Below are positions 317 through 59,723 of a stretch of DNA of 64,000 nucleotides, one piece after another (within the stretch, counting starts at the first letter, position 1; the number at the start of each line of letters is the position of its first letter). A model generated the notes under the pieces. The model had not been told where the DNA came from. It searched no databases and saw only the letters and a program-made list of their open reading frames with translations. A program made the translations under genes and the position numbers. Location of the stretch: IMG/VR virus record IMGVR_UViG_2029527006_000005; one strand, written 5' to 3'. Origin of the DNA: a virus (taxonomy: Duplodnaviria; Heunggongvirae; Uroviricota; Caudoviricetes).

Positions 317-469
317 ACAATCTCCAGATGAAAAAAAGCCAATAGTAGATGATTTTACTATTGGCTTAAGGGCATAATACAAGATTATGCATTTTGGTAG
401 TTTGGGGAATATCATCACTACCGGAGAGATATTTTAAGTATTTATAAAAATGCCCCGGTACGGATGTTA

Positions 470-724
470 TTACCAACCAGTACTGAACTTTTCAGGTACA
501 CGTTCTTGGAAAGGCTTAACGTACCAACGATCATCTTCAGCTTCATAAGAAGTGAGTTCAGTTGGAATAACATGCTGTGAACCATCAACCCGGCTCCTTA
601 CGTGGAATAGTTTACCACTTTTATGAACATAGATACGTTCATTACTACGGAACTCTGGAAGTTCAACATAAACGCCATTGTTCCATGACTTTTGTAAATC
701 TTCTAAAATTTTGGAAAACTTCAT
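470..724 (-). CDS. hypothetical protein (84 aa)
   Basis: track ORF 470..814 trimmed to the internal ATG at 722-724, which is preceded by AGGAG; the longer N-terminus is a read-through of the tRNA-Gly gene. Confidence 0.5.
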   Translation of the reverse strand: MKFSKILEDLQKSWNNGVYVELPEFRSNERIYVHKSGKLFHVRSRVDGSQHVIPTELTSYEAEDDRWYVKPFQERVPEKFSTGW

Positions 725-741
725 TTTATTCTCCTTTAAAT

Positions 742-816
742 TGGTGCGGGTGGAGAGAATCGAACTCTCATCCAATGGGTGGAAGCCATTGATAATAACC
801 ATTATACGACACACGC
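742..816 (-). tRNA. tRNA-Gly (anticodon UCC)
   Basis: cloverleaf on the reverse complement: acceptor GCGTGTG/CACCCGC (one mismatch), anticodon stem CAATGG/CCATTG with loop CTTCCAC, T-arm GAGAG-TTCGATT-CTCTC, encoded CCA. Confidence 0.65.
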
Positions 817-3933: not shown

Positions 3934-4135
3934 TTAGTTCTTTAACTTCTTCTTCGAACCAAATAAAATTACCCTGTGAATCAGTACCGTAAAAACGTTT
4001 ATGAAGTTCATCGTACTTGTAACCTTTAGCACGTGCTTCATCATAAAACTGTTTCAAGTTCACGTATACTCCATAGACTTCAGTGCGTTCTGAATCAATG
4101 TAATCAGTTTCTTTCAAAATCACAACGACTTGCAT
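3884..4135 (-). CDS. hypothetical protein (83 aa or shorter)
   Basis: ORF track; its start overlaps the upstream gene so the true start may be internal. Confidence 0.4.
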   Translation of the reverse strand: MQVVVILKETDYIDSERTEVYGVYVNLKQFYDEARAKGYKYDELHKRFYGTDSQGNFIWFEEEVKELNGYQPPHIPEEVWEDE

Positions 4136-4551
4136 TAGTAACGCCTCCTGTCAACTGAAAACTTATTAATCTCTTCTTTAGCTAAACCTAAAAGAAGTTC
4201 AAGTTTATGTACTAACTCATATGGTAACACATTATCACTCATTGTGCTAGCTTGAAATCCATCTTCTTCAGAATGTGGTACGTAGTACTCAGAAGTACGG
4301 TTAAGATTTCTTAATAATTGTACCATCACCAATGGACTTAGGGGATTATTATTCTGTTGAAGTACTACCTCTTCTTCTTTAGTTGGCTCCAAATCAGGAA
4401 GAGATATAGTATTTGTAAGACGATCAAACGTAATACGCTGACTTGCACTCCTGATGAATAAACGGTGTGGTGCACCGCTTACGAAGCCGAAAGTGAAGTC
4501 TTCAGCAAACATCATATCATCAAATAACTTTCTGTACAACTCAATGTTCAC
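4135..4551 (-). CDS. hypothetical protein (138 aa)
   Basis: ORF track. Confidence 0.5.
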   Translation of the reverse strand: MNIELYRKLFDDMMFAEDFTFGFVSGAPHRLFIRSASQRITFDRLTNTISLPDLEPTKEEEVVLQQNNNPLSPLVMVQLLRNLNRTSEYYVPHSEEDGFQASTMSDNVLPYELVHKLELLLGLAKEEINKFSVDRRRY

Positions 4552-5041
4552 GATTCATCTCCGCAAAAAACATTTCACGTGCACGTTCTACTACATCAAT
4601 GTAGAACCCCAAGTCAGTACAGGAAAGCTGGAATCTTTCTTCCTCGGAATTATACGTGTATTCCGCATCACTGAACCAGAATCCATTATACTTCAATAAA
4701 ATCTGTGAGTCAACTGCATCATGCAATTCATCACGATAATATTCAGGTGGAACACCGTACTCACTAGTGTTGAAGTGAAACATCTGGTAGATGCTCAATT
4801 CTTTAAAATCCGGGAGATAATGGAAATGGTAATTTTCAGTGAATAGATGTACTTCATTTGAATTGGAACTATTACAGTACTCACTGAAGTACTGTTCAGT
4901 GTCAACAGTGTCACGATATCCGTCTTCACCATCGTCTACCCAAACAAAAAAAGATGGCTCATCTAAGAAACCATCTTCCAAATTGTCTAAATCTTTACTT
5001 AGGTGTTCAAACATACCTTTTTGTCTGATCAGTTCTTTCAT
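4541..5041 (-). CDS. member of the EEE-FFQ-ST small-protein family
   Basis: C-terminal SEEERFQLSCTDLGFY matches the motif shared by at least 14 other ORFs in the window. Confidence 0.55.
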   Translation of the reverse strand: MKELIRQKGMFEHLSKDLDNLEDGFLDEPSFFVWVDDGEDGYRDTVDTEQYFSEYCNSSNSNEVHLFTENYHFHYLPDFKELSIYQMFHFNTSEYGVPPEYYRDELHDAVDSQILLKYNGFWFSDAEYTYNSEEERFQLSCTDLGFYIDVVERAREMFFAEMNREH

Positions 5042-48263: not shown

Positions 48264-49045
48264 TTCCACACAAATGTTTTGATTGGCTCAAATCTTTCTG
48301 GTAAGACGGGCAAATCGTACATAGTGGCATTTCTAAATTTTACAATATATGACTTCTGAAGTACTACGATAGCTTTTTTCATCGCTGCGTTAGCACGTTC
48401 TTTCCAGAAGTACTGGTACGGTTCCGGGCATCCGATGTGTTCAAGTTTGAACATACCTAATGCAACCTGCATCAAGCGTTGTGGAGCCTCTACTCTACCA
48501 TCAGCCAACATAGCACCATGTTGCTGTGCAGTCCATCCGGGAATACCCGGTAAGGAACAAAACAAATCGAAGTCCTTAATGGTCTGGAAATGTTTAGAGT
48601 TCTTTATCTGGTTGTGTATTACCGCTTCCTTCACTGTCTTGTACAAAGAGAAATCTAAGTACACTGCGTCGTTTCGAAATAGTTTATCTAACTCTGCATA
48701 AGTCTCTGGTACTGGTAACTCTGGCATATATGTTCCGAAAACTTCTATACAGAAGATTTTCCATAATCCCTTAGTGAACTCTACTTCTTTATCGTAGTCT
48801 TCTTGTTCAAAAAAGAATTTGTTTCTGAGGTTCTTTTCATTTATGTATACCTTACGTGCTAAGTATGACTTGAGTACTAACTCAGTTCCTACATCAACAC
48901 GTCTGATATCATCATAACCTCTACCTATGCGGTTTATTTCATAAGTCCTAACGTACAAACGTTTACTTAGACCTACTCTGCCAGATTTTTGATTACTGCA
49001 TTTTGTTGTTTCATGTAATGCTATTAAATTTGTTAGTACTCTCAT
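48248..49045 (-). CDS. hypothetical protein (265 aa)
   Basis: ORF track. Confidence 0.55.
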   Translation of the reverse strand: MRVLTNLIALHETTKCSNQKSGRVGLSKRLYVRTYEINRIGRGYDDIRRVDVGTELVLKSYLARKVYINEKNLRNKFFFEQEDYDKEVEFTKGLWKIFCIEVFGTYMPELPVPETYAELDKLFRNDAVYLDFSLYKTVKEAVIHNQIKNSKHFQTIKDFDLFCSLPGIPGWTAQQHGAMLADGRVEAPQRLMQVALGMFKLEHIGCPEPYQYFWKERANAAMKKAIVVLQKSYIVKFRNATMYDLPVLPERFEPIKTFVWNKKRA

Positions 49046-49725
49046 TAGCGAAGTACGAAGTATTGACCTTCACGGTTGCCTACAATGTACTGCTTACCAG
49101 AACGGAGCACATCAAATCCTTCACCTAGTATACTACTCAATCTTGTATTGTCAAGCTGAGTTTTATCATTGAGAAGACCCTTGACAAAAGATTCGGATAC
49201 AATACCACTTCCAAGCTGGAAGTGCAATGGACCGTACATTGTATTGAGTCGAATAGTCTCTTCTAGAATATCAACACTTACGCCAGCAGGATCAAAGAAC
49301 TCTGTGATTCTATCTGGTTGTACTAATTCCATCTTTTGAGTGATAATATCAAAATCAACATCAATTGGATCGTTCACTCCGTACAACTGAATTTTCCAAC
49401 CCGGATTAGGGCAGATGTTCTCAATTGTTTTGAGTAATAGTAGTAGTTTTTGTGGGAATTCACCATCACGTTCAAACTCAGAGAATACAATGTATCGACC
49501 GTCTACGTTAGGTGTTTCGCTAGCTTCTGTGTCAATTACACCTACTGGTGATTTCTCAATAAATGAGCTTAAGTCATACGCTGCGTCAAAGTTATCTAGT
49601 ACTTGAAACGCAACGACAACGTTGTTTTCTCCAATCTTAGAAGTGTATTCATCTACACTGAAAATTGGGTGAATTAAATCTTTTAGCATAGCAGGACGTA
49701 ATGCACGTTCATTTAGTTTTTTCAT
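49045..49725 (-). CDS. hypothetical protein (226 aa); a sliding-clamp (gp45-like) identity is possible but unsupported
   Basis: size and N-terminus MKKLNERALRPAMLKDL loosely recall T4 gp45 (MKLSKDTTALLKNF); nothing beyond that. Confidence 0.5.
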   Translation of the reverse strand: MKKLNERALRPAMLKDLIHPIFSVDEYTSKIGENNVVVAFQVLDNFDAAYDLSSFIEKSPVGVIDTEASETPNVDGRYIVFSEFERDGEFPQKLLLLLKTIENICPNPGWKIQLYGVNDPIDVDFDIITQKMELVQPDRITEFFDPAGVSVDILEETIRLNTMYGPLHFQLGSGIVSESFVKGLLNDKTQLDNTRLSSILGEGFDVLRSGKQYIVGNREGQYFVLR

Positions 49726-50297
49726 TACATACCTCCCATTGGGTTGTTATTACCTTGACCGAATTCGTCATCCATCTCTTGGACTTCTTCTTCGTTTTCC
49801 ATGCTCATATCTGGCTCTGGTTGTTCTTCATCTTCCATCTCTGCGTTCTTATTAAAAGTACTAGCAATTAGTTTGTACTCATCGAAACTTTCTGGGTTTA
49901 CAATGCGACGTGGAATTTGGAATTTGTAGAGGATAATTGGAATGCGTTCGTCTTTAGGTAAAGAGACTGAACCACTTTGAGTGCCTACTGCTTCCATATC
50001 ATTACGGCTACGTGGGAAAGCAATTGGAGTATTCTCGAAATCTCGCTTAATATAAACTTTAGTTCCCTGCTGTTCTAGTACCTTAGTTCCCATAGGATCT
50101 GGGAAAGTATCATGGTCGTACTTAAAAGTAACTTCCACCCAATACTTACTAACGATTGGTCCCTCTACTAGCTCACCGTAAATCCAGTTCTTGTAAGCAA
50201 ACAAGTCCATATCGTCGAAGTACTTCTCTACCCCTAAAAGGATATCTAGAAGTCCATCTTGATCGTACAAGTTTTGAATAGCTGAATTTTCTTCCAT
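49725..50297 (-). CDS. hypothetical protein with highly acidic C-terminal tail (190 aa)
   Basis: EMEDEEQPEPDMSMENEEEVQEMDDEF. Confidence 0.5.
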   Translation of the reverse strand: MEENSAIQNLYDQDGLLDILLGVEKYFDDMDLFAYKNWIYGELVEGPIVSKYWVEVTFKYDHDTFPDPMGTKVLEQQGTKVYIKRDFENTPIAFPRSRNDMEAVGTQSGSVSLPKDERIPIILYKFQIPRRIVNPESFDEYKLIASTFNKNAEMEDEEQPEPDMSMENEEEVQEMDDEFGQGNNNPMGGM

Positions 50298-50340
50298 GTT
50301 ATGTTCCTTTAATGTTACATAATTATATTCTTATTTACTG

Positions 50341-50375
50341 AATTTCAAAACAACAAAAGGGGATTACTCCCCTTT
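50341..50375 (-). terminator. putative terminator hairpin overlapping the gene stop
   Basis: AAAGGGGA-TTACT-CCCCTTT followed by TGTTGTTTTG on the minus strand. Confidence 0.4.
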
Positions 50376-50984
50376 AGACATTTCAGTAACTACACTGTGT
50401 ACAATTCCAGCCCAATTATCCACAAATTTGAAATCAGTACGTACCTTGTACTTCTCATTGTGTGGGCGTTTCAACATAATACCGGGAATACCCAATACCA
50501 ATGCAGTTTCGATATTCATAATGTAATCGTCTACTAAACAAACTACATCATACTGTGCTTGAAGCTGTGAAAGTACACCACGTTTAGATTCATACATTTC
50601 TACAATGTGAATCTCATCAAATACATTAGGGAATACGTTATGAATATTCACCTTCCGAAGTACTTCACCATGACCAAATGTTCCTGACTTAGTTAGTACT
50701 GCAAATACTGCATCCGGGTATGTATGACGCAATGCACATAGTAAAGACTGTGCACCTTCCAGTGGTTTTAGTAGACCAAATTCAAATGAAGTTTGGTTAA
50801 ATTGTTTGATTACTTCTTGTACTTGGACTGAACTTAGTCCCAACCATTTTTCCAACCCATATTCATGTGGGTATTCAGTTTCAGTTACAATATCAAATTT
50901 ATCTTTAACGTACTCACGTAGACCACCTAAGTGGTCTAGTAGGATTTCATCGCAGTCAAATACAATTACTTTCTTTTTTGTCAT
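50364..50984 (-). CDS. HAD-superfamily phosphatase / 5'(3')-deoxyribonucleotidase-like
   Basis: motif I VIVFDCDEIL (DxDx[TV]); about 200 aa. Confidence 0.5.
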   Translation of the reverse strand: MTKKKVIVFDCDEILLDHLGGLREYVKDKFDIVTETEYPHEYGLEKWLGLSSVQVQEVIKQFNQTSFEFGLLKPLEGAQSLLCALRHTYPDAVFAVLTKSGTFGHGEVLRKVNIHNVFPNVFDEIHIVEMYESKRGVLSQLQAQYDVVCLVDDYIMNIETALVLGIPGIMLKRPHNEKYKVRTDFKFVDNWAGIVHSVVTEMSKGE

Positions 50985-51940
50985 TACCAGTTTCCTGTGC
51001 AGATTAGATCAATTTCACATAGCAATGCACTTAGGTTCAATTCGCGGTCCGATACAGACGCTTGCTTGACCATTGCATCACGGATTTTAACGATAATCTT
51101 CATACGAGTGATTTCGTCATCAGAGAACAATTTAGCATTCTGGGAGAGGTATGTAAAGAACCCATCCATTTCATCTTCTGGGATGTTCTGGACGATGAGT
51201 TCACGCATCTCACGAATACTGCCGTTCTTTAGTGCATCAATAATAAGGGAACGATAGTTAGCTGTGCTATCCACGCTATCCTCAAGTTTTAGTAGCTTAC
51301 CATCAACGATGCTGCTTTGCAAGGTGTTTAGTGTTTTACGGAAATCAGGATAGGTTGCATTGATGTATTTGTCAACTAAAGCTAGTGATTCTTCAGTACT
51401 CAAATCTACTTCTTCAGCTAGTAGGACGTTAATAATACGGGTCATGTATTCTTCACGGTCATGCTTTTCGATAGTGATGTTTTGTACACGAGATAGAATA
51501 GGTTTTAGAATCTTGTGTGGTTCGTTAGAAGTTAGAATGAAACGTGCGTTATCCGCATAGTCTTCCATTGTACGCTTTAATGATGCTTGTGCCTTTTGGT
51601 TCATTTGTTCCATTTCTTCTAGAACAAAGATACGGTACTTACCACTTGGTGTTAGACGTGCAGATGGTTCGATTTTATCACGAACTGCATCAATACCTTC
51701 ATCTGACATGTTAAGGATCATAACATCAAAACGGTCGATAATACCATTGGCTTCTAGTCCGTTAATTAGAACGTTAATTGCGGAAGTCTTACCAGTACCT
51801 GCTGGACCGAAGAAACCAATGTGTGGAATATCACCAGTACGAACCCACTCTTCCATCTTTGCTTGGAAAGCTGGGTTTTTGAATACGTAGTTTTCCATAT
51901 CTTGTGGGCGATACTTTTCTGTCCATAGTGCATTACTCAT
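50984..51940 (-). CDS. gp44: clamp-loader ATPase subunit (T4 gp44-like, AAA+ RFC family)
   Basis: WTEKYRPQ, Walker A GPAGTGKTS, SRC-like SRV motif, arginine finger region; 318 aa. Confidence 0.85.
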   Translation of the reverse strand: MSNALWTEKYRPQDMENYVFKNPAFQAKMEEWVRTGDIPHIGFFGPAGTGKTSAINVLINGLEANGIIDRFDVMILNMSDEGIDAVRDKIEPSARLTPSGKYRIFVLEEMEQMNQKAQASLKRTMEDYADNARFILTSNEPHKILKPILSRVQNITIEKHDREEYMTRIINVLLAEEVDLSTEESLALVDKYINATYPDFRKTLNTLQSSIVDGKLLKLEDSVDSTANYRSLIIDALKNGSIREMRELIVQNIPEDEMDGFFTYLSQNAKLFSDDEITRMKIIVKIRDAMVKQASVSDRELNLSALLCEIDLICTGNW

Positions 51941-51949
51941 AAATTACTC

Positions 51950-52225
51950 CTAAATTGTCCAATCTTCATTTGGGTATAACATTGCTTGAAATAGATCACC
52001 ATTCATTTCTAGTTGACTCAATAGAAAGTCAAAGCTATTAGAACGGTTGGGTAGTTCACTACCACGTGCTTTATCTTGTGCCATTTTTACAAAGAGAACT
52101 CTGAACTGATCATGATTTACTTCGTAAACTAATTTTCTGTTCCTAGGATGTTCGAATACGAATCGTCCCGTTTTGGATTCTAATTGTACTAAATTAAAAT
52201 CTACTTTACCGTCTTCTGTTATCAT
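51950..52225 (-). CDS. hypothetical protein (91 aa)
   Basis: ORF track. Confidence 0.45.
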   Translation of the reverse strand: MITEDGKVDFNLVQLESKTGRFVFEHPRNRKLVYEVNHDQFRVLFVKMAQDKARGSELPNRSNSFDFLLSQLEMNGDLFQAMLYPNEDWTI

Positions 52226-52232
52226 TATGTAC

Positions 52233-52265
52233 CTTCAAAAATAATGCCCGAAACAATTCGGGCAT
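52233..52265 (-). terminator. rho-independent terminator
   Basis: hairpin ATGCCCGAA-TTGT-TTCGGGCAT followed by TATTTTTGA on the minus strand. Confidence 0.6.
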
Positions 52266-52269
52266 AAAC

Positions 52270-52596
52270 TTATTTTCCAAGTCCAATAAAACCTTTTGGA
52301 CGATCTGGTGATGCACATAGTACACCTTTTGGATAATCAACTAGATTCATCTGAATACCGTCAACGGTAATAGTACGTGACCATCGACCATGTTCAACTA
52401 AAATCCATTCACCTTCTTGAATATCTACAATACCTTCACCAACGCTATATACCTTAGCCCATCGACTATGGATACCACGTAGTTTACCATCATCATCTGA
52501 TAGTACAATACCACCAGCGGTTTTCTGTTCACCACTGTCTAAGTTAGTTACTAGTACTTTGCCTTTACACGCAGTAAGAACTTTTGACTCCATCAT
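52270..52596 (-). CDS. GroES/Cpn10-like co-chaperonin (functional analogue of T4 gp31)
   Basis: GKVLVTNLDSGEQKTAGGIVL ... KVYSVGEG ... has the GroES fold signature. Confidence 0.6.
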   Translation of the reverse strand: MMESKVLTACKGKVLVTNLDSGEQKTAGGIVLSDDDGKLRGIHSRWAKVYSVGEGIVDIQEGEWILVEHGRWSRTITVDGIQMNLVDYPKGVLCASPDRPKGFIGLGK

Positions 52597-52601
52597 ATGT
52601 C

Positions 52602-52994
52602 TTACTCCCCGTCTTTAGACGCACGTACACGGCGTGGGGCAGCTTTCTCTTTAACTTCAGGCTGAGGTACTACTTCTTGTGCAGGAGCCTCAGAACGAGC
52701 TACAGGCTCTTGTTCAGGCATTTCAAACATAGTGTCGTCAAAGCCGTCATCAACTTTAGCGGTCTGTACTTGTACAGAATGGCTTGTGTGCTCTGGAATG
52801 AAATCTGGGAGTTGCATTCTGCGTTCACGTTCTTCGAGAAGTTCTTCACGAGTTTTGATGATTGTACCACCTTGGCCGATTTTATCACCACGTGCGTTCA
52901 TGTTCGCATTGCCTAGTGCTGTATCGTGCTGGTTTTGATATTTCATCATTTCAATATCAATTGTCTGACCACGATAAGATGTGTGTTTTGCCAT
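52602..52994 (-). CDS. hypothetical protein (130 aa)
   Basis: ORF track. Confidence 0.5.
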   Translation of the reverse strand: MAKHTSYRGQTIDIEMMKYQNQHDTALGNANMNARGDKIGQGGTIIKTREELLEERERRMQLPDFIPEHTSHSVQVQTAKVDDGFDDTMFEMPEQEPVARSEAPAQEVVPQPEVKEKAAPRRVRASKDGE

Positions 52995-53021
52995 AGCATA
53001 TATCCTTATATTAACACGTTA

Positions 53022-53540
53022 TTACCATTTTAAGAACTCGTTTACATCTAGCTCATATTTAAGACTGTCAACTAAATGTAGTCCGAGCAAGTACAAACAA
53101 TAGCTACTCACTGAACTACCACGACCTAAGCCCCAGAAGATTTTATTCTCTTCAAGGTAGTCTACTAACCATATCATACAACGTAGTAGTTTGTTCATAT
53201 TATAGCTCTCGTATAAAGCGAGTTCTTCCAGTACTCTAGCCTTTTGTGCATCAGTTTCGCACAACCCTAGAAAGTACTCTTCTAAGTTCAAATTATCATA
53301 AGCTGGATCGTACTTCCATAGCTCATGGTTTTTATCGTGCTCAATAGTATAATCGAGCATTCGATATTCTAATCCAAATTTCTTACAGTTATCGTTGAAC
53401 TTTTCACGTTCGAATTCATCCATCTCCATTAATTTGAGATATTGCAAATCCGCACCGCAATTCATAGCGTATACTACTGCATTAAGATTGCAGTGTACTT
53501 CACCATCCTGATTTATATATCTGTTTCCTTGGACCTTCAT
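53022..53540 (-). CDS. DNA polymerase III alpha (DnaE)-like fragment protein
   Basis: LRCMIWLVDYLEENKIFWGLGRGSSVSSYCLYLLGLHLVDSLKYELDVNEFL aligns with E. coli DnaE [52 protein letters not shown]; the ORF ends just before the catalytic PDFDxDF motif. Confidence 0.55.
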   Translation of the reverse strand: MKVQGNRYINQDGEVHCNLNAVVYAMNCGADLQYLKLMEMDEFEREKFNDNCKKFGLEYRMLDYTIEHDKNHELWKYDPAYDNLNLEEYFLGLCETDAQKARVLEELALYESYNMNKLLRCMIWLVDYLEENKIFWGLGRGSSVSSYCLYLLGLHLVDSLKYELDVNEFLKW

Positions 53541-53808
53541 GTTTCTTCTTGTCTTCCTCTTCTTTATTCAAATAAGATTCAGTATCAAATACGCAACTAT
53601 CTTCATCTTCAAGTTTTTCAATTTCTTTACGAGAAGAACGTGTGAGACTTTCTTCATCACACGCTTCAATGATTAAGTACATACGAGTGAGCATGTCATG
53701 TGACATACCCGCTGCACGTGCTTGAGATATTTTAGTACTCATATCGAAAATCTTTTGTTGAAGTTCTTTATCTGTCATGCCAGATGGATCAAAAAATGGA
53801 TCAAACAT
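53500..53808 (-). CDS. hypothetical acidic protein (102 aa)
   Basis: ORF track; 41-nt overlap with the DnaE-like ORF in another frame. Confidence 0.4.
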   Translation of the reverse strand: MFDPFFDPSGMTDKELQQKIFDMSTKISQARAAGMSHDMLTRMYLIIEACDEESLTRSSRKEIEKLEDEDSCVFDTESYLNKEEEDKKKHEGPRKQIYKSGW

Positions 53809-53819
53809 ATTATGTCTCC

Positions 53820-56201
53820 TTACTGTTTGCCAACTAATGGTATAATGAATTTGTCCTGCACATACAAGTCATAGTCTTGTGTGTGGAATGTAAATTCAAC
53901 ACCATGTACCTCGAATTCGGTATTTACTAAAGTACTATGCTCGTTAGTTTGAACTAGCTTAGTAAAGAATGATTCAGCTTGACCGGGATTGAAGTAAGCA
54001 ACTGGTAGGATTGGCATAAACTGTGGAGTTAAGCCATATTCTTCATATGGGTGATTCATAAAACGAGGAACTGTATCTGTCATTTCATCGGATAGACCGG
54101 GGATGGCAGGAACAACTAAACCGCGATTTCGAAAATCATCTGGATCAGTATAAAGGTTTGTCACATCTTCACCCACTTCTTTAAAAATGTTTTGGCGTAA
54201 ACCAAACACTTCTGAGAACATTTCATTGTCGGTCGCGGTATATGAATGTGGATTCATACTGACACTAACACGTGTTCCTGATGGATGCAACTCACGATAC
54301 AATAGATCATACACCACATTCCCAAGATTGTCAAGGGCTGATGTGATTTTATAATTACCCATTACTAGACTGAAAACACCATCCGGTACGGGAGCACCAT
54401 GTTCAGGGTCTATAATAACATTGGAGAGAATCTTTTTCAAGGGTTTTATTCCGGGGAACTGATAGTTCTGTGAAATGAAGTTCTCTTTCAATAGCATTCT
54501 AGGAAGCTGTTGAACACCATAACGATCATCACTTTCTCTGTAGTAAGTTTTATTCAAATAGAAGTTAGAGGTTGCAACACTAGCAAACCATGCACGTTCG
54601 AAATTCTTACTAGGTGCAATATGTGCAGTTTGATAGTTCTGTCCAAATCCACGAATTATAGTTATATTGAATCGTTTTGTAACAGTAGCACCACCTTTAT
54701 CATTGGCGATTACGTCAAACTCTAATTTAATATCATCATTTGCTGAAAAGTCTTGGCTTCTTGCATATGCAGTGCCAACCATATAACCATCAGCAGTTAA
54801 ATCCATATTGTACTTACGAATATCATCAGGAGATGATTCATAGTTAATCCGATAAGTTACTAATGTACCACTTGCTTTAATTTTAGGATATACAGTATGA
54901 CCAAAATACTCACCAACATGAATTCTACCTAAGTTTGCATCTGTTTCAAAATCAATACCACCGCCAGTACTGGCATTTATTAATGCACGGAACATTCTAG
55001 ATTTGTTTATAAGATTTGCACCTAGTGCTAAATCATATACACCTAAATCATTCCACATAGAAGGTTCAAAAATTGCATATTCATTACTATCAATGTATTC
55101 TGATTTTATCACATAAGGATAAACAATATTGTTTTTCAACTGATATAAGTGTCCGGGCTTTGCACCACCACGAATATAACTAATGTCATTAGGACACACC
55201 CACATTTGATATGCTTTGAACCGCTTCCCTACATAGAATGCATCTCTAGGTGAACTATAGAATGCAGTAATAGGAACAATCTTAACTTGGAAATAACCAT
55301 CAATTGGATCTGATTCGTATGTCATTGTTTGAAGAAGTTGACCGTTAGCATTAAAACGCATACCAGTACTTACTAAGTTACCCAAAGTATCCATTATGAC
55401 AATATCAGTTTCTTCAGTTATTGCAGTGGTTTTTGGAATTAAAATTGTACCGCTACCGGTAATATTATCAGTGGGTATTTGTCCTTTAGTAATACGTTCA
55501 ATTTGGTAACTAGGATAGAATACACGATCTGACCTGTCATCTGGGTATGTGAAATCTTTTGAGTCATCGTATTTTCGTACTTGACCAAAGGCATCAACAA
55601 ACAAACGACTGTCCGAACCAAAACCAACTGCACCAATTGTGTACTTTTCACCTCTAGCAATAATACTAGGCGTGACCCAAATTTCATTAGTATCGTTATA
55701 TACGATATCAACAGTAGAAGTAACAATATCTCCAGCAGCTTCTTGGTTGGAAATTTGACCGTCAGTGATTGTTACAACATCCATTGTGTTTAATGTAATA
55801 TGAACAGTTTCTGGCCCGTCCCAAACACCATCATCAATAGCTATTAATTTCATGTAATAAACATCTAGTACTGAATTATCATTTACTAGATTAAATTCTT
55901 TTTTGGTCATTTTTACTGTATGTTGACCGAACATAGTTTTAATACCAGTAGTTCCTTCGTGAATGTTCACTAAACTATTCTGATTTTCACCAACGTACAA
56001 TTCGAAATCACGTTCATCTAACGTTTCACCACTTCCAGTGAAAGTGTACGTTAGTTCTAAATGCTGATCGTCACCCAACTTGTATTGGAGGTTAGTACTA
56101 TCATCATTTTTTCTTAATTGAATGCGAACAAATAAGTGTCCACCTTCTGCGATCACTGTTGCGTCAGCTTTCAAGTCCCAACGTGGCTGGAAATTTGCCA
56201 T
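53820..56201 (-). CDS. large hypothetical protein (793 aa), candidate late/virion protein
   Basis: long ORF with beta-rich composition; T4-type late promoter TATAAATA about 30 nt upstream. Confidence 0.6.
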   Translation of the reverse strand: MANFQPRWDLKADATVIAEGGHLFVRIQLRKNDDSTNLQYKLGDDQHLELTYTFTGSGETLDERDFELYVGENQNSLVNIHEGTTGIKTMFGQHTVKMTKKEFNLVNDNSVLDVYYMKLIAIDDGVWDGPETVHITLNTMDVVTITDGQISNQEAAGDIVTSTVDIVYNDTNEIWVTPSIIARGEKYTIGAVGFGSDSRLFVDAFGQVRKYDDSKDFTYPDDRSDRVFYPSYQIERITKGQIPTDNITGSGTILIPKTTAITEETDIVIMDTLGNLVSTGMRFNANGQLLQTMTYESDPIDGYFQVKIVPITAFYSSPRDAFYVGKRFKAYQMWVCPNDISYIRGGAKPGHLYQLKNNIVYPYVIKSEYIDSNEYAIFEPSMWNDLGVYDLALGANLINKSRMFRALINASTGGGIDFETDANLGRIHVGEYFGHTVYPKIKASGTLVTYRINYESSPDDIRKYNMDLTADGYMVGTAYARSQDFSANDDIKLEFDVIANDKGGATVTKRFNITIIRGFGQNYQTAHIAPSKNFERAWFASVATSNFYLNKTYYRESDDRYGVQQLPRMLLKENFISQNYQFPGIKPLKKILSNVIIDPEHGAPVPDGVFSLVMGNYKITSALDNLGNVVYDLLYRELHPSGTRVSVSMNPHSYTATDNEMFSEVFGLRQNIFKEVGEDVTNLYTDPDDFRNRGLVVPAIPGLSDEMTDTVPRFMNHPYEEYGLTPQFMPILPVAYFNPGQAESFFTKLVQTNEHSTLVNTEFEVHGVEFTFHTQDYDLYVQDKFIIPLVGKQ

Positions 56202-56230
56202 ATTTAATTCTCCAAATATTTAAAAGCTAC

Positions 56231-56268
56231 CGTATTTATAACAATAAAGGATGCACGAGGCATCCTTT
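56231..56268 (-). terminator. putative terminator hairpin after the topo gene
   Basis: AAAGGATGC-ACGAG-GCATCCTTT (9-bp stem); weak U-tract. Confidence 0.35.
56233..56240 (-). promoter_or_regulatory. T4-type late promoter core TATAAATA
   Basis: plus strand tatttata; about 30 nt upstream of the ATG of the 793-aa gene. Confidence 0.35.
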
Positions 56269-56275
56269 AATATAC

Positions 56276-57697
56276 TTAGTCTTTTTCTGCTTTTGGTGTG
56301 CAGTCCATCTTACGTAGTTTCTTGAGTTCATCAGCATAAATGGTCCAGATCTCTTCTGGATTATCTAGAATGTCCTGATACTTATTCATTAAGTCTAGAG
56401 CTTCTTGAATCTCTTCTAGTGTCTTATTGTAGTTCTCTTGTGTCCAACGATAAGAAGCATAGTTCACGATGTTTTGGATATTATCATCGGTAGCTTGAAT
56501 ATCATCATTGAGTACTGTAACAAAATCAACTAGCTCTTGACGGTTTTGGAAGTCTTTAATCTTCGTTACCATCTCATTCTCAAAACACTTAGCTACTAGT
56601 GCTTTATAACGTACTTCTGCTTCTGCTTTAGCCAATAGATGCTCATAACGTTTCACGTAATATTTGAAACGGAAATGAACAAAGTCATGGATTAAGTCAG
56701 AAGTGTTATTGTAGACTTTTACACGACCGTTCTCACCGAGTACTACAAGTGATTGGGTCAATTTACTACTCAAACCAAAGTACTTGATTACATCACTTTC
56801 TACCCATTTAGCACTTGTGCCACGTGGTAGTTTGATAGTAATATCAATCGTATCAGTACTGTCATTGTCGTAGTCACGGATTTCACCGCTGTCCTGCATA
56901 GCAATTAGTTTCTCAATAAAAGAATCAATCTTCACACGAGGTGGTAGACCTAGAATCTTAACTGAACTTGCATCAATTACTTCTGCACGACCATAGAATT
57001 CATATTTGTTTTCATCGATTTCACCAACAATATCACTAGCACCAAGTGACACACAATAAGGAGTCATTTTCTGTAGTGGCTTTTTGTTAATTACGCGTAA
57101 GCAGTTGTCGATAATATCTTCGATGCGATAAGGTAGAATCAAACTCTTATAACCTACAGACATACTATCATTACCAAATAGTGATAATGGGATAATAGGT
57201 AGGAAGTGAGTTGGTTCCATTGTTGTACCATCATAGTTTTCTTGCATTGGTACAATGTCCATATCTTGTAGTACTAACGCTTCTGTTACTGCGGTACGTT
57301 TAACGTAAGTATAACGAGCACTAGCTGGAGTACTGTTAACCTGTGTACCGAAACCACCACGTTTACCGATGAGTGGATAGTTGTTAGCTACTGGACTTGC
57401 AAGGTTCTGTAGTGTTCCTGAAGCGGAAGTGTCACCGTGAAGGTAGATACCATCACTAATCATACGTCCTGCTGCGGATACAGTTTTAATCTCACCTGAG
57501 ATTTTACTTAGCGTGAAGATAGCCTTACGCTGTGAGCTTTTCAATCCATCAATACCGGGGATTGCACGGTCGAGAGTACTGACAGAATATTCCAATGATG
57601 ATTGGTTGATATATTCAGAACTCACGTATTTTAGTAGTGTTAGCGTTGCGTTTTCAATAGCATTACTTGCAGCCGCTTTTTTAGTTGATTTAGCCAT
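56276..57697 (-). CDS. gp52: DNA topoisomerase II medium subunit (T4 gp52-like, GyrA-like)
   Basis: TopoIIA breakage-reunion region with active-site Tyr context; 473 aa. Confidence 0.85.
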   Translation of the reverse strand: MAKSTKKAAASNAIENATLTLLKYVSSEYINQSSLEYSVSTLDRAIPGIDGLKSSQRKAIFTLSKISGEIKTVSAAGRMISDGIYLHGDTSASGTLQNLASPVANNYPLIGKRGGFGTQVNSTPASARYTYVKRTAVTEALVLQDMDIVPMQENYDGTTMEPTHFLPIIPLSLFGNDSMSVGYKSLILPYRIEDIIDNCLRVINKKPLQKMTPYCVSLGASDIVGEIDENKYEFYGRAEVIDASSVKILGLPPRVKIDSFIEKLIAMQDSGEIRDYDNDSTDTIDITIKLPRGTSAKWVESDVIKYFGLSSKLTQSLVVLGENGRVKVYNNTSDLIHDFVHFRFKYYVKRYEHLLAKAEAEVRYKALVAKCFENEMVTKIKDFQNRQELVDFVTVLNDDIQATDDNIQNIVNYASYRWTQENYNKTLEEIQEALDLMNKYQDILDNPEEIWTIYADELKKLRKMDCTPKAEKD

Positions 57698-57749
57698 TCC
57701 TTTGCCTCTTTGTTATTTCGGGGTACTTCCTGTACCCCTTCTTTAGTAC

Positions 57750-59723
57750 TTAGTCTTTCATCCATTCTTTACGGTCATCAGCACGTTCTTTGTTGAAGAT
57801 TAGGTCAAGGGTTGGACCCAAGTTACCATCATCAACAATAGCTACTGCTACGCCGTTAGTTAGTGCATCACGGAAGTTACTCTTCTCTAGAGTACCCAAT
57901 CCTTTAGCACGAGTTGCTTTCCAACCTTTCCATTCTTCTGGGTTATATTCTTCTACGTTGTGACCGTAGTAATAACGACTTTCTTTTCCTTTCTCCAAAA
58001 TAATAAAAGGAGTTTTGAAAATATACACGAATGGGTTTTCGGCATCTTCGAACAATTCAGGCCAGAACTTATATAGGAAGTTCACGACTAGTGCACCGAT
58101 GTTTTTACCATCCTCATCTTCGTCAGCACAGATATATAGTTTACCGTAGTTTAATTCATCACGGATTGCTTTCTGTCCGGGGATCAAGTTGATACTAGCC
58201 ATAATGTCTTTTAGGGCATCACTATCCATTAAGTCTTTGGTCTTTTCAGTACCGTTGACGTTCTTGATCTTACCACGAAGTGGGAGTATACCATGTTTCT
58301 TAGAATCACGTGCTGCTGACATGTTACTTACCGCTGAATCACCTTCTGCAATTAGAAGAATACATTCAGTACGGTTAGAACCAGTTGCATCAAGTAACTT
58401 AGCTACTTTAGCTTTTAGAAGTTTCTTAGCTAGACGACGATCTTCATCTGCGTCCTTCTTATTAGTACGTGCAGCAGTACGCTCAAAGATTTCTTCAACC
58501 CAATCTTTGTTTTTCTTCACTAGTTCATCAAAGAACTCAGGAGTCATAGCTTTTTTAACTGGAGCAATAACGTTCTCATTAGTTAGCTTAGATTTAATCT
58601 GTGAGTTGAACGATGGTGCGTTCATAGTAGTCACGTTATAAATCATTAGACCTTCTTCAATGTCTCCACGGTTAGGAGTCATTTTGCGTTTCTTAGCTTC
58701 TTTTTCAAGTGCAGTACTAACGCCTAGGGCAAAGAACTTTTTAAATGTTTCAAGGTGAGTACCGCCATCAAACGCAGGAGCGTTGTTAACAATACCTTGC
58801 ATGTGGAAGTTGGTATTCATATCTTTTACTGCGTTTGGCACAATATAGAAAGTACTGTCAAATCCAATGCTATCATCTTTAACATTTAGGTTCATCATTT
58901 TGTTTGCACCAAAAAGAGTTTTCTCTGGTGTCGCCTTAGTAGCAATCTTCTTGCCATTAAGGATAATCTTGTACGCTGGATTAGCAGAAGCAATCTCTTT
59001 CAAGATACTGTAAACTAAATCCATTGGGAGGTTGCGATTCTTGAACACTTCTGGACTTAGCGTGAAGCTAATTGATGTACCAGTTTTATCCGCTTGAACT
59101 TTGCGAATTGTAGGTTCTTGAATATCTAGTTCAGGGAACATAATAGTACCTTCCTTGAACTTTTGGTTGAACTTATAAATTCCATCATAGCCATCATTAG
59201 ATGCTTGGGTCTTATAAGGACGACCGTTGCGGTGAATCTCTAGCTCTGCTTTCGAACTCACACACATTGTAATGGAACCACCTAGACCGTTCTGACCGAT
59301 TGTACCTTCACGTTTTGAATCGTCAAAGTTACGACCAGTTTTGGTTTCAGTTAGTACCATAGTACACAAATGTACATCGAACTCTGGTACGTAATCAATT
59401 GGAATACCACGACCGTTATCACTTATTACAAATGATAAATCGTCTTCGTTGTAATCAATTTTTAGTACAGGATCTTTTGTACCTGCTTTTTTAAACTCAT
59501 CAAGAGAGTTATCAATGATCTCACGGAACGCTGTTATTAGTGCTGGAACCCATTCTAGGTTCACAACGTTATAACCGTCTTCTTTGAAAAGTACCACTTG
59601 GTGTTCATGAACAGAACGTGAACCTAAGTACATTTCAGTACGAATGCGAGCATGTTGATAGTCGTTTAGTCGCTGAACGTCATGTTCAGAAAGCACGGAT
59701 GAGGATTTCTTTTCTTTTGCCAT
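57750..59723 (-). CDS. gp39: DNA topoisomerase II large subunit (T4 gp39 fused with gp60-like region; GyrB-like ATPase)
   Basis: GHKL ATPase motifs (EIIDNSLDE, DNGRGIP, GLGGS), Toprim region; 657 aa implies a 39+60 fusion as in many T4 relatives. Confidence 0.85.
   Translation of the reverse strand: MAKEKKSSSVLSEHDVQRLNDYQHARIRTEMYLGSRSVHEHQVVLFKEDGYNVVNLEWVPALITAFREIIDNSLDEFKKAGTKDPVLKIDYNEDDLSFVISDNGRGIPIDYVPEFDVHLCTMVLTETKTGRNFDDSKREGTIGQNGLGGSITMCVSSKAELEIHRNGRPYKTQASNDGYDGIYKFNQKFKEGTIMFPELDIQEPTIRKVQADKTGTSISFTLSPEVFKNRNLPMDLVYSILKEIASANPAYKIILNGKKIATKATPEKTLFGANKMMNLNVKDDSIGFDSTFYIVPNAVKDMNTNFHMQGIVNNAPAFDGGTHLETFKKFFALGVSTALEKEAKKRKMTPNRGDIEEGLMIYNVTTMNAPSFNSQIKSKLTNENVIAPVKKAMTPEFFDELVKKNKDWVEEIFERTAARTNKKDADEDRRLAKKLLKAKVAKLLDATGSNRTECILLIAEGDSAVSNMSAARDSKKHGILPLRGKIKNVNGTEKTKDLMDSDALKDIMASINLIPGQKAIRDELNYGKLYICADEDEDGKNIGALVVNFLYKFWPELFEDAENPFVYIFKTPFIILEKGKESRYYYGHNVEEYNPEEWKGWKATRAKGLGTLEKSNFRDALTNGVAVAIVDDGNLGPTLDLIFNKERADDRKEWMKD

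Follow-up and report, generated by a model that had tools for sequence, protein, structure and literature searches.

A Pol III alpha-like palm fragment of a jumbo phage as the likely nucleotide-binding half of a two-gene polymerase

A stretch of 64,000 nucleotides from the Caudoviricetes record IMGVR_UViG_2029527006_000005 of IMG/VR (hereafter the window) contains a stand-alone open reading frame (ORF) at 53022..53540, whose 172-aa product is homologous to one part of the catalytic core of DnaE, the alpha subunit of bacterial DNA polymerase III (Pol III alpha). We consider it likely that the protein is the nucleotide-binding half of a minimal Pol III alpha-like enzyme encoded by two genes. It would form a composite active site together with the product of a second, distant gene, and the enzyme probably works beside a family B replicase in replication or repair. 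Such a split enzyme is already known as a computational prediction. In the jumbo phages of group 2.2, which are defined by their family B polymerase, a "minimal, split Pol III alpha" was described beside that polymerase, consisting of an N-terminal unit that binds nucleoside triphosphates and a C-terminal unit that binds Mg2+ and the template, encoded by distant genes (Iyer, Anantharaman, Krishnan, Burroughs, Aravind, Viruses 2021, PMC7824862). These authors proposed a role in replication or repair alongside the T4-like replisome, and argued that the phage minimal form models the ancestral state of Pol III alpha. The N-terminal piece has been annotated since 2013–2017; in phage CBB, the 172-aa protein CBB_328 was reported as a "truncated" Pol III alpha beside the gp43 homolog CBB_263 and a DnaQ-like protein (PMC5259590), and the homolog of phage Atu_ph07 is listed as gp316 in the paper on that phage. 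The window protein belongs to the same family as the N-terminal unit of Iyer et al. (PHROG 11127) and differs from it in nothing essential. Judged by these comparisons, the puzzling "DnaE fragment" appears to be a conserved, functional half-enzyme that had been described before, neither a new discovery nor genomic debris. Because the text of PMC7824862 gives no accession for the C-terminal unit, the claim that such a unit exists was tested independently. Added here are the partner gene with its coordinates in several phages, a mapping of residues on the DnaE of Escherichia coli and Mycobacterium tuberculosis, co-occurrence counts, two conserved gene blocks and the coincidence of the gene boundary with an intron insertion site.

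The N-terminal unit and its conservation

The sole Pfam family that matches the ORF product (the N-unit), even at E ≤ 10, is PF07733 (DNA_pol3_alpha). The match covers residues 97–171 with E = 5.4e-8 and 33.2 bits, exceeding the gathering score of 23.9, and corresponds to positions 21–95 only of the 260 profile positions. PHROG 11127 ("DNA polymerase"), a profile of 171 positions, spans residues 1–171 with E = 2e-80. When PDB sequences were searched with a profile made from an alignment of 55 diverse family members (A1), nine Pol III alpha sequences ranked at the top (E 0.006–0.02), and residues 100–172 of the N-unit paired without any gap with residues 320–392 of E. coli alpha (EYDERLETEL...LLFERFL), 336–406 of M. 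tuberculosis DnaE1 and 384–454 of Thermus alpha. The core thus aligned consists of two helices, the GS loop, a further helix and the ...EFL end, and the last residue of the protein is the equivalent of E. coli L392, nine residues short of the catalytic D401 and D403. An earlier note on this DNA had described the ORF as a stand-alone homolog of the pre-palm region of DnaE, with C-terminal residues that align nearly position for position with DnaE and an end just before the palm aspartates; the Pfam match and the gapless alignment to E. coli alpha bear out this description in every particular.

Within the core, the GRGSS loop (residues 139–143) aligns on G361-R362-G363-S364-G365 of E. coli alpha and is invariant in 55/55 aligned family members; it is the hG[GS] motif with which the Pol-beta-like nucleotidyltransferase fold binds nucleotides. 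The 13 invariant columns of A1 all fall in this core (R102, E106, G137, G139, R140, G141, S142, S143, S146, Y147, L149, H155 and S159), and in the N-terminal region just W75 and Y81 are near-invariant. Residues 1–96 have no significant match in any Pfam family or PDB sequence and were modelled by AlphaFold as a beta-hairpin and helices, with a predicted local distance difference test (pLDDT) score of 65–90. The model of the entire N-unit has a pLDDT of 85.8. Compared with the PDB, Pol III alpha or PolC chains account for six of its seven best matches, which are weak (E 0.2–6), as is to be expected when a fragment of 172 aa is compared with chains of 900–1,150 residues. The segment before the GS loop (~132–146) was modelled with lower pLDDT and without a strand; as weak evidence, this would fit a strand that needs a partner sheet.

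With bacterial DnaE (PDB 2HNH, 2HPI and 5LEW) the N-unit shares the palm segment 320–392 including the GRGS loop, but it comprises 172 instead of ~1,160 aa and its N-terminal 96 residues are unrelated to DnaE. Moreover, the chain contains none of the three catalytic carboxylates (E. coli D401, D403 and D555) and lacks the PHP domain, the thumb, the fingers (PF17657), the helix-hairpin-helix domain (PF14579), the beta clamp-binding motif, the OB fold and the tau-binding domain.

The window region is syntenic with, and 81% identical at the nucleotide level to, the Salmonella phages Munch, 7t3, SE_PL and PHA46 and the Klebsiella phage fENko-Kae01, whose genomes measure 337–360 kb. By these likenesses the window is DNA of a Rak2/121Q/GAP32-like (group 2.2) jumbo myovirus. 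Of the T4-like replication genes, a clamp loader is encoded in the window itself, and a family B polymerase is ascribed to this phage from the literature on its relatives (CBB_263 and the definition of group 2.2). A protein identical to the N-unit is recorded solely from a 361,872-bp contig of the NCBI whole-genome shotgun project AGFT01, nominally a bacterial assembly. This contig looks like a complete jumbo-phage genome and is absent from INPHARED, where its best match has 81% nucleotide identity.

The N-unit is 92% identical to CPT_Munch_353, and identities amount to 75–92% in Rak2-like phages (the orthologs of Munch, 7t3, GAP32, CBB, 121Q and RaK2), ~50% in PA5oct-like phages and 29–53% in XacN1, Xoo-sp13, RsoM2USA, Atu_ph07 and SCTP-2. 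Between the window gene and its Munch ortholog, the ratio of nonsynonymous to synonymous divergence (dN/dS) is 0.052/0.90 = 0.058; the N-unit is under purifying selection. A search of 1.84 billion cluster representatives (50% identity) yielded 880 matches, of which 643 reached E ≤ 1e-10. Nearly all of the 150 listed measure ~150–190 aa, with a match that reaches the C-terminus. In this list and in another of 120 homologs, most proteins have the full length (~150–196 aa) and share their end position, and the shorter ones are apparently truncated gene calls; all family members in A1 end just after ...EFLK. The earlier note had also considered a decaying relic. That the ORF covers only ~75 residues of a ~1,160-aa protein could indeed be expected of a functionless remnant of a captured host dnaE, but the low dN/dS, the 643 clusters, the similar length and identical end residue of the listed homologs, the 13 invariant positions and the synteny kept across lineages at ≤50% identity leave this explanation with next to no probability.

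The complementary gene and a predicted composite active site

When a regular expression for the pair of best-conserved catalytic motifs in C-family polymerases was run on the complete 121Q-like genome OR844650.1, it singled out one ORF (Table 1), hereafter the C-unit, in which TDIDIDF stands at residue 15 and KVDILS at residue 80. The order of its motifs is TDIDIDF, PHNSGVHF, YQKVDILSQ, AMFIAMIRPGKRQ and KKPHAYAYS. In a phmmer search with the DnaE of Thomasclavelia phage TR-TP2 against all ORFs of the window and of the 121Q-like genome, the N-unit alone was matched; the weak match e_266129 was dismissed as noise aligned to the PHP region. A hidden Markov model of 120 phage DnaE relatives missed the partner, the true C-unit scoring ~0 bits, and its best matches (E = 0.011 and 0.019), a LysM/lysozyme-like protein and a low-complexity protein, were rejected. 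Ten neighbouring or large ORFs of the window, scanned against Pfam and PHROG, include no DnaE piece; they encode virion structural proteins, a HAD-type nucleotidase and proteins of unassigned function. One window ORF with a DVDFD motif (49045..49725, minus strand, 226 aa) was discarded as a candidate partner, being a virion structural protein of PHROG 13138 (E = 2e-100) without a Pfam match, in which DVDFD is a chance resemblance to the DnaE catalytic motif.

The family search with the C-unit returned 785 matches, and the 120 listed are nearly all of 190–220 aa and carry no precomputed Pfam domain. Invariant in this family are D12, D14, D16, H44, G47, P54, G73, K76, D78, Y85, R145, P146, K148, H186, Y190, Q197 and N199, comprising the motifs DIDID, KxD, RPxK and HAxxY. 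According to the motif alignment, D14, D16 and D78 correspond to the catalytic D401, D403 and D555 of E. coli alpha, and K76 to K553. A C-unit profile searched against 177,635 PDB sequences gave two matches, both to M. tuberculosis Pol III alpha and both in four collinear segments (Table 1), at E-values of 0.12 and 0.31, which are marginal yet specific and collinear. The fingers family PF17657 matched below threshold (E = 0.045), and hhalign of the C-unit against a DnaE alignment gave P = 6.5e-5 over the HxxG...KxDxLG palm segment. The AlphaFold model of the C-unit reaches a pLDDT of 94.5 and a predicted template modelling score of 0.83; compared with the PDB, its top 13 matches are all Pol III alpha chains, with probabilities of up to 0.99 and E from 5e-3, and the rest are noise. 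In several recent GenBank entries, the C-unit already bears the name "DNA polymerase" or "DnaE-like".

On M. tuberculosis DnaE1, the N-unit match stops at residue 406 and the C-unit match starts at 413. Therefore, the two units cover adjacent, non-overlapping parts of one palm, and the pair presents the DxD, KxD, RPG and KSHAxxY motifs in the same order as DnaE. The thumb region between DxD and KxD is reduced from ~150 residues in DnaE to ~60 in the C-unit. A split polymerase piece was among the explanations offered in the earlier note, and it is the one borne out by the data: a complementary gene of ~210 aa with DxDxD, KxD and finger motifs co-occurs with the ORF in virtually all phages that have it and maps right after its end. 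In the enzyme that we propose, which is typical of jumbo phages of the Rak2, 121Q, PA5oct and XacN1 types (group 2.2), the N-unit would supply two helices, then a strand and the GRGSS loop, by which the triphosphate of an incoming nucleotide is held, and after these one more helix. The C-unit would contribute the DIDID strand with two metal-binding aspartates, the KxD strand with the lysine and the third aspartate, and a reduced finger module (RPxK and HAxxY). The two chains probably associate non-covalently into one Pol-beta-like palm, and the resulting enzyme, without PHP domain and thumb, would probably act in replication or repair beside the family B replicase and the T4-like replisome.

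In a tblastn search of phage records, the C-unit was found in 96 and the N-unit in 95, the latter count answering the earlier note's question about conservation in related phages. For almost all genera listed, the two units have matching counts (Escherichia 34/34, Pseudomonas 11/11, Salmonella 8/8, Erwinia 8/8, Xanthomonas 4/4, Yersinia 4/4 and Klebsiella 11/10). Munch, SE_PL and fENko-Kae01, the closest relatives of the window phage among these records, all carry the C-unit. Neither of the two PA5oct proteins was flagged as a virion protein, and the main text of the PA5oct paper does not mention this polymerase. IMG/VR holds at least 593 loci of the N-unit and at least 570 of the C-unit. Among the best 80 of ~600 loci per family, on contigs that are mostly short, both families occur in GAP32 and on one 66-kb contig, where the genes lie 44 kb apart, an overlap that at this sampling says nothing on co-occurrence. 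Among GTDB genome contigs, C-unit contigs are binned in metagenome-assembled genomes labelled Pacearchaeota, Natrialbaceae, Rickettsiales, Cloacimonadota, Verrucomicrobia, Dojkabacteria and others; most likely, these are mis-binned jumbo-phage contigs.

Table 1. Coordinates of the N-unit gene and its neighbours in the window, of both genes in related phages, and of the C-unit profile segments on M. tuberculosis DnaE1.
Feature	Sequence	Position	Strand	Remarks
N-unit, complete coding sequence	window	53022..53540	-	172 aa + stop; ATG at 53540, stop 53022-53024; from the ORF list
N-unit, conserved core, aa 97-171	window	53028..53252	-	PF07733 and gapless profile alignment; ~E. coli alpha 320-392, N-terminal part of the palm
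N-unit, GRGSS loop, G139-R140-G141-S142-S143	window	53112..53126	-	GGT CGT GGT AGT TCA read in the sequence
N-unit, N-terminal region, aa 1-96	window	53253..53540	-	poorly conserved across the family; outside the PF07733 match
PHROG 14844 protein, downstream neighbour	window	52602..52994	-	130 aa; E=1.6e-47; function unassigned
Cpn10/GroES-like protein	window	52270..52596	-	108 aa; PF00166 E=4e-5, above gathering score
RFC/gp44-type clamp-loader AAA+ ATPase	window	50984..51940	-	318 aa; PF13177 E=4e-12 and PF00004 E=2e-10, both above gathering score
N-unit	Munch	250107..250622		33 kb from the C-unit
C-unit	Munch	217128..217727		
N-unit	121Q-like phage OR844650.1	62347..62865		31 kb from the C-unit
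C-unit	121Q-like phage OR844650.1	93198..93836	-	212 aa
N-unit	PA5oct	EST35_0288		~44 kb from the C-unit
C-unit	PA5oct	EST35_0220		
C-unit profile 5-16	M. tuberculosis DnaE1	413-424		MPDIDIDF
C-unit profile 45-84	M. tuberculosis DnaE1	485-525		weak segment, without conserved motif
C-unit profile 60-150	M. tuberculosis DnaE1	568-671		GLLKMDFLG...ALYRPGP
C-unit profile 159-180	M. tuberculosis DnaE1	765-787		FNKSHAAGY

The split point, introns and inteins

Many conventional phage relatives of DnaE apparently start with M(F)xNPSRVTNADIDTDY, at the residue right after the N-unit boundary. In the one example examined, contig ena:ERZ27297680:k141_1489056 (L040), an upstream ORF of 384 aa (PHP domain and N-terminal part of the palm) ends with ...KFGLNFFR, and a downstream ORF of 673 aa starts with MNPSRVTNADIDTDY. 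The two pieces are 950 nt apart, and positions 4036–4884 hold a group I intron (RF00028, E = 5e-9) with a LAGLIDADG ORF. A true two-protein enzyme was therefore rejected for this conventional DnaE, whose apparent split is an effect of the group I intron and of gene calling. Many "DnaE" proteins of 663–690 aa in databases, which start with MNPSRVTNADIDTDY, may likewise result from gene calling at this intron. The intron site lies within ~2 residues of the end of the N-unit and of the start of the C-unit family; thus, the N-unit ends at a position that, in phage DnaE genes of full size, is a homing site for an intron. The break point of the minimal enzyme may descend from such a group I intron or homing-endonuclease site, still occupied in the full-size genes, but as an evolutionary origin of the split this is speculative. 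The gene on L040 is broken at almost the same codon as that of the window phage, but its product is presumably spliced to a full-size protein with PHP domain, thumb and fingers, whereas the window case has no intron, smaller halves and a distance of tens of kb between them.

The same intron could be read as a sign that the ORF represents just the opening exon, or extein, in a polymerase gene interrupted by an intron, intein or split intein, whose product becomes a single polypeptide after splicing; an interrupted gene had likewise been weighed in the earlier note. A precedent for the intein variant exists in cyanobacteria such as Synechocystis and Nostoc, where DnaE-n and DnaE-c are encoded by two distant genes and joined by a naturally split intein, so that there, too, the catalytic subunit of a C-family polymerase derives from two distant genes. 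We nevertheless hold this explanation to be very improbable. An Rfam scan of window positions 50000..56500 matched no family, group I introns included, and the partner is called or annotated as a gene of its own in relatives, 31–33 kb away. Moreover, the cyanobacterial halves carry intein fragments that act by protein trans-splicing at a site in the fingers, whereas the N-unit ends with ...EFLKW and the C-unit has ~10 residues before DIDID, and these termini are too short to leave room for split-intein halves (~100 aa and ~35 aa). For this reason, an association of the phage N- and C-units must be non-covalent.

In Thomasclavelia phage TR-TP2 (L004, 3041–7666), DnaE is divided into ORFs of 551 and 496 aa by an HNH endonuclease gene. 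This split site differs from that of the N-unit, being located directly behind the KLDILGL motif, to which the third catalytic aspartate belongs. It seems that the best-conserved catalytic motifs of phage DnaE are recurrent targets of mobile endonucleases.

Gene neighbourhoods and the possible role of the pair

All large ORFs around the N-unit gene are carried by the minus strand. The order N-unit, PHROG 14844 protein, Cpn10-like protein and clamp loader is kept in the window (50984–53540, minus strand), in the PA5oct-like phage Paride and in XacN1 (loci L002 4686–7763 and L003 4806–6940), hence in three deeply diverged lineages, and the PHROG 14844 protein measures 115–130 aa across this block. 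The window copy of this protein has a homolog in Paride_0088 (E = 4e-13) and a weak one in XacN1 ORF244, and the Cpn10-like protein is homologous to Paride_0089 and XacN1 ORF243, each in the same position. The window clamp loader, in which the lid family PF21328 (Gp44_lid) scored below the cut-off (E = 0.003), is orthologous to those of XacN1 and Paride, which are encoded two to three genes after their N-units. In this block, a GroES-like gene stands between a polymerase piece and a clamp loader. In PA5oct and the 121Q-like phage, the C-unit is encoded two genes from a primase or primase-like gene, which in the 121Q-like phage is followed by a DnaB-type helicase (PF03796, E = 3e-17). As one block contains the clamp loader and the other the primase and helicase, each half of the putative enzyme resides in a different replisome module.

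Several observations count against a composite polymerase. Literature searches found no experimental follow-up on the split Pol III alpha, and the matches of the C-unit to DnaE that use sequence only are marginal when taken individually (E 0.045–0.3). With tblastn, no C-unit was detected within the 64-kb window; given the spacing of 31–33 kb in the 121Q-like (ECO103) and Munch genomes, the partner of this phage is predicted at ~84–87 kb on the window scale, beyond its right end. No fused N+C protein and no side-by-side pair of N- and C-unit genes occurs among the matches listed, which leaves the pair without Rosetta-stone support, and none of 19 environmental C-unit loci has an N-unit within 2 kb of the C-unit. 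The position of E. coli R390 is occupied by a nearly invariant glutamate (E168) in the N-unit family, which does not favour the role of a conventional polymerase. Finally, processive DNA synthesis seems doubtful, since the thumb, the PHP domain, the OB fold, the clamp-binding motif and most of the fingers are missing from the 384 aa of the two chains combined.

Some of these traits would also suit a composite enzyme of the Pol-beta fold that is not a templated DNA polymerase, but a non-templated or otherwise specialised nucleotidyltransferase involved, for example, in end-tailing, primer processing, the formation of a nucleotide second messenger or DNA modification. In its favour are the absence of the thumb, of most of the fingers and of the regions that bind clamp and tau, the glutamate in place of R390, and the family B replicase that these phages already own according to the literature. 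We regard this alternative as unlikely, because RPxK and HAxxY are invariant and aligned with ALYRPGP and KSHAAGY of DnaE, and because both genes are situated in replisome modules. Alternatively, the 172-aa protein might function alone as a non-catalytic replisome accessory or adaptor, and its co-occurrence with the C-unit might reflect shared genome ancestry. Its partners could then be the clamp loader, the family B polymerase of the phage or, if it served as the decoy suggested in the earlier note, host proteins that interact with Pol III. The missing catalytic carboxylates, the location in the conserved clamp-loader block and the lack of any fusion or adjacency to the C-unit in the matches and loci mentioned above agree with an adaptor. 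Still, we deem this decidedly unlikely: the invariant residues form the GRGSS loop and its flanking helices instead of a surface patch, and the catalytic triad of the partner, intact across hundreds of lineages, would be pointless without the half that carries the GS loop. In Pol III alpha, the regions that bind beta, tau and epsilon belong to the C-terminal region and the PHP domain, and these regions are absent from the N-unit. For the decoy in particular, no specific support emerged, and it would leave the invariant GRGSS and the co-occurrence with a catalytic partner unexplained.

If the composite polymerase is accepted, one may speculate further, with considerable doubt, that the heterodimer of 384 aa is the smallest known C-family polymerase, with an active site across a protein interface, whose assembly might be regulatory. 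As all family members seen in this analysis are unfused and the two genes are part of different replisome modules, assembly of the active site may be a regulatory step, and synthesis could, for example, be confined to places on the lagging strand at which the machineries for clamp loading and for priming come together. An active heterodimer would represent a minimal two-chain C-family polymerase of ~384 aa and show to what catalytic core the bacterial replicase fold can be reduced at the most. Its activity would have a bearing on the evolution of Pol III alpha, too, and the phage replisome would combine a eukaryote-like family B polymerase with one of the bacterial type.

Upstream of the N-unit gene, an ORF of 102 aa (53500..53808, PHROG 15348, function unassigned) overlaps its start by 41 nt; this arrangement points to co-transcription and possibly to coupled translation. 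The ORF that follows the clamp loader (50364–50984, minus strand), at the place where T4 encodes gp62, its small clamp-loader subunit, resembles a HAD-type 5'-deoxynucleotidase (PF06941, E = 1.7e-4, and PF13419, E = 7e-4, both below gathering score) and is homologous to Paride_0092. Further upstream, at 56276–59723 (minus strand), adjacent ORFs of 473 and 657 aa nearly match CPT_Munch_350 (472 aa) and CPT_Munch_349 (657 aa), both annotated as DNA topoisomerase, in length and position; by synteny only, they may correspond to the phage topoisomerase II of two subunits treated by Iyer et al.

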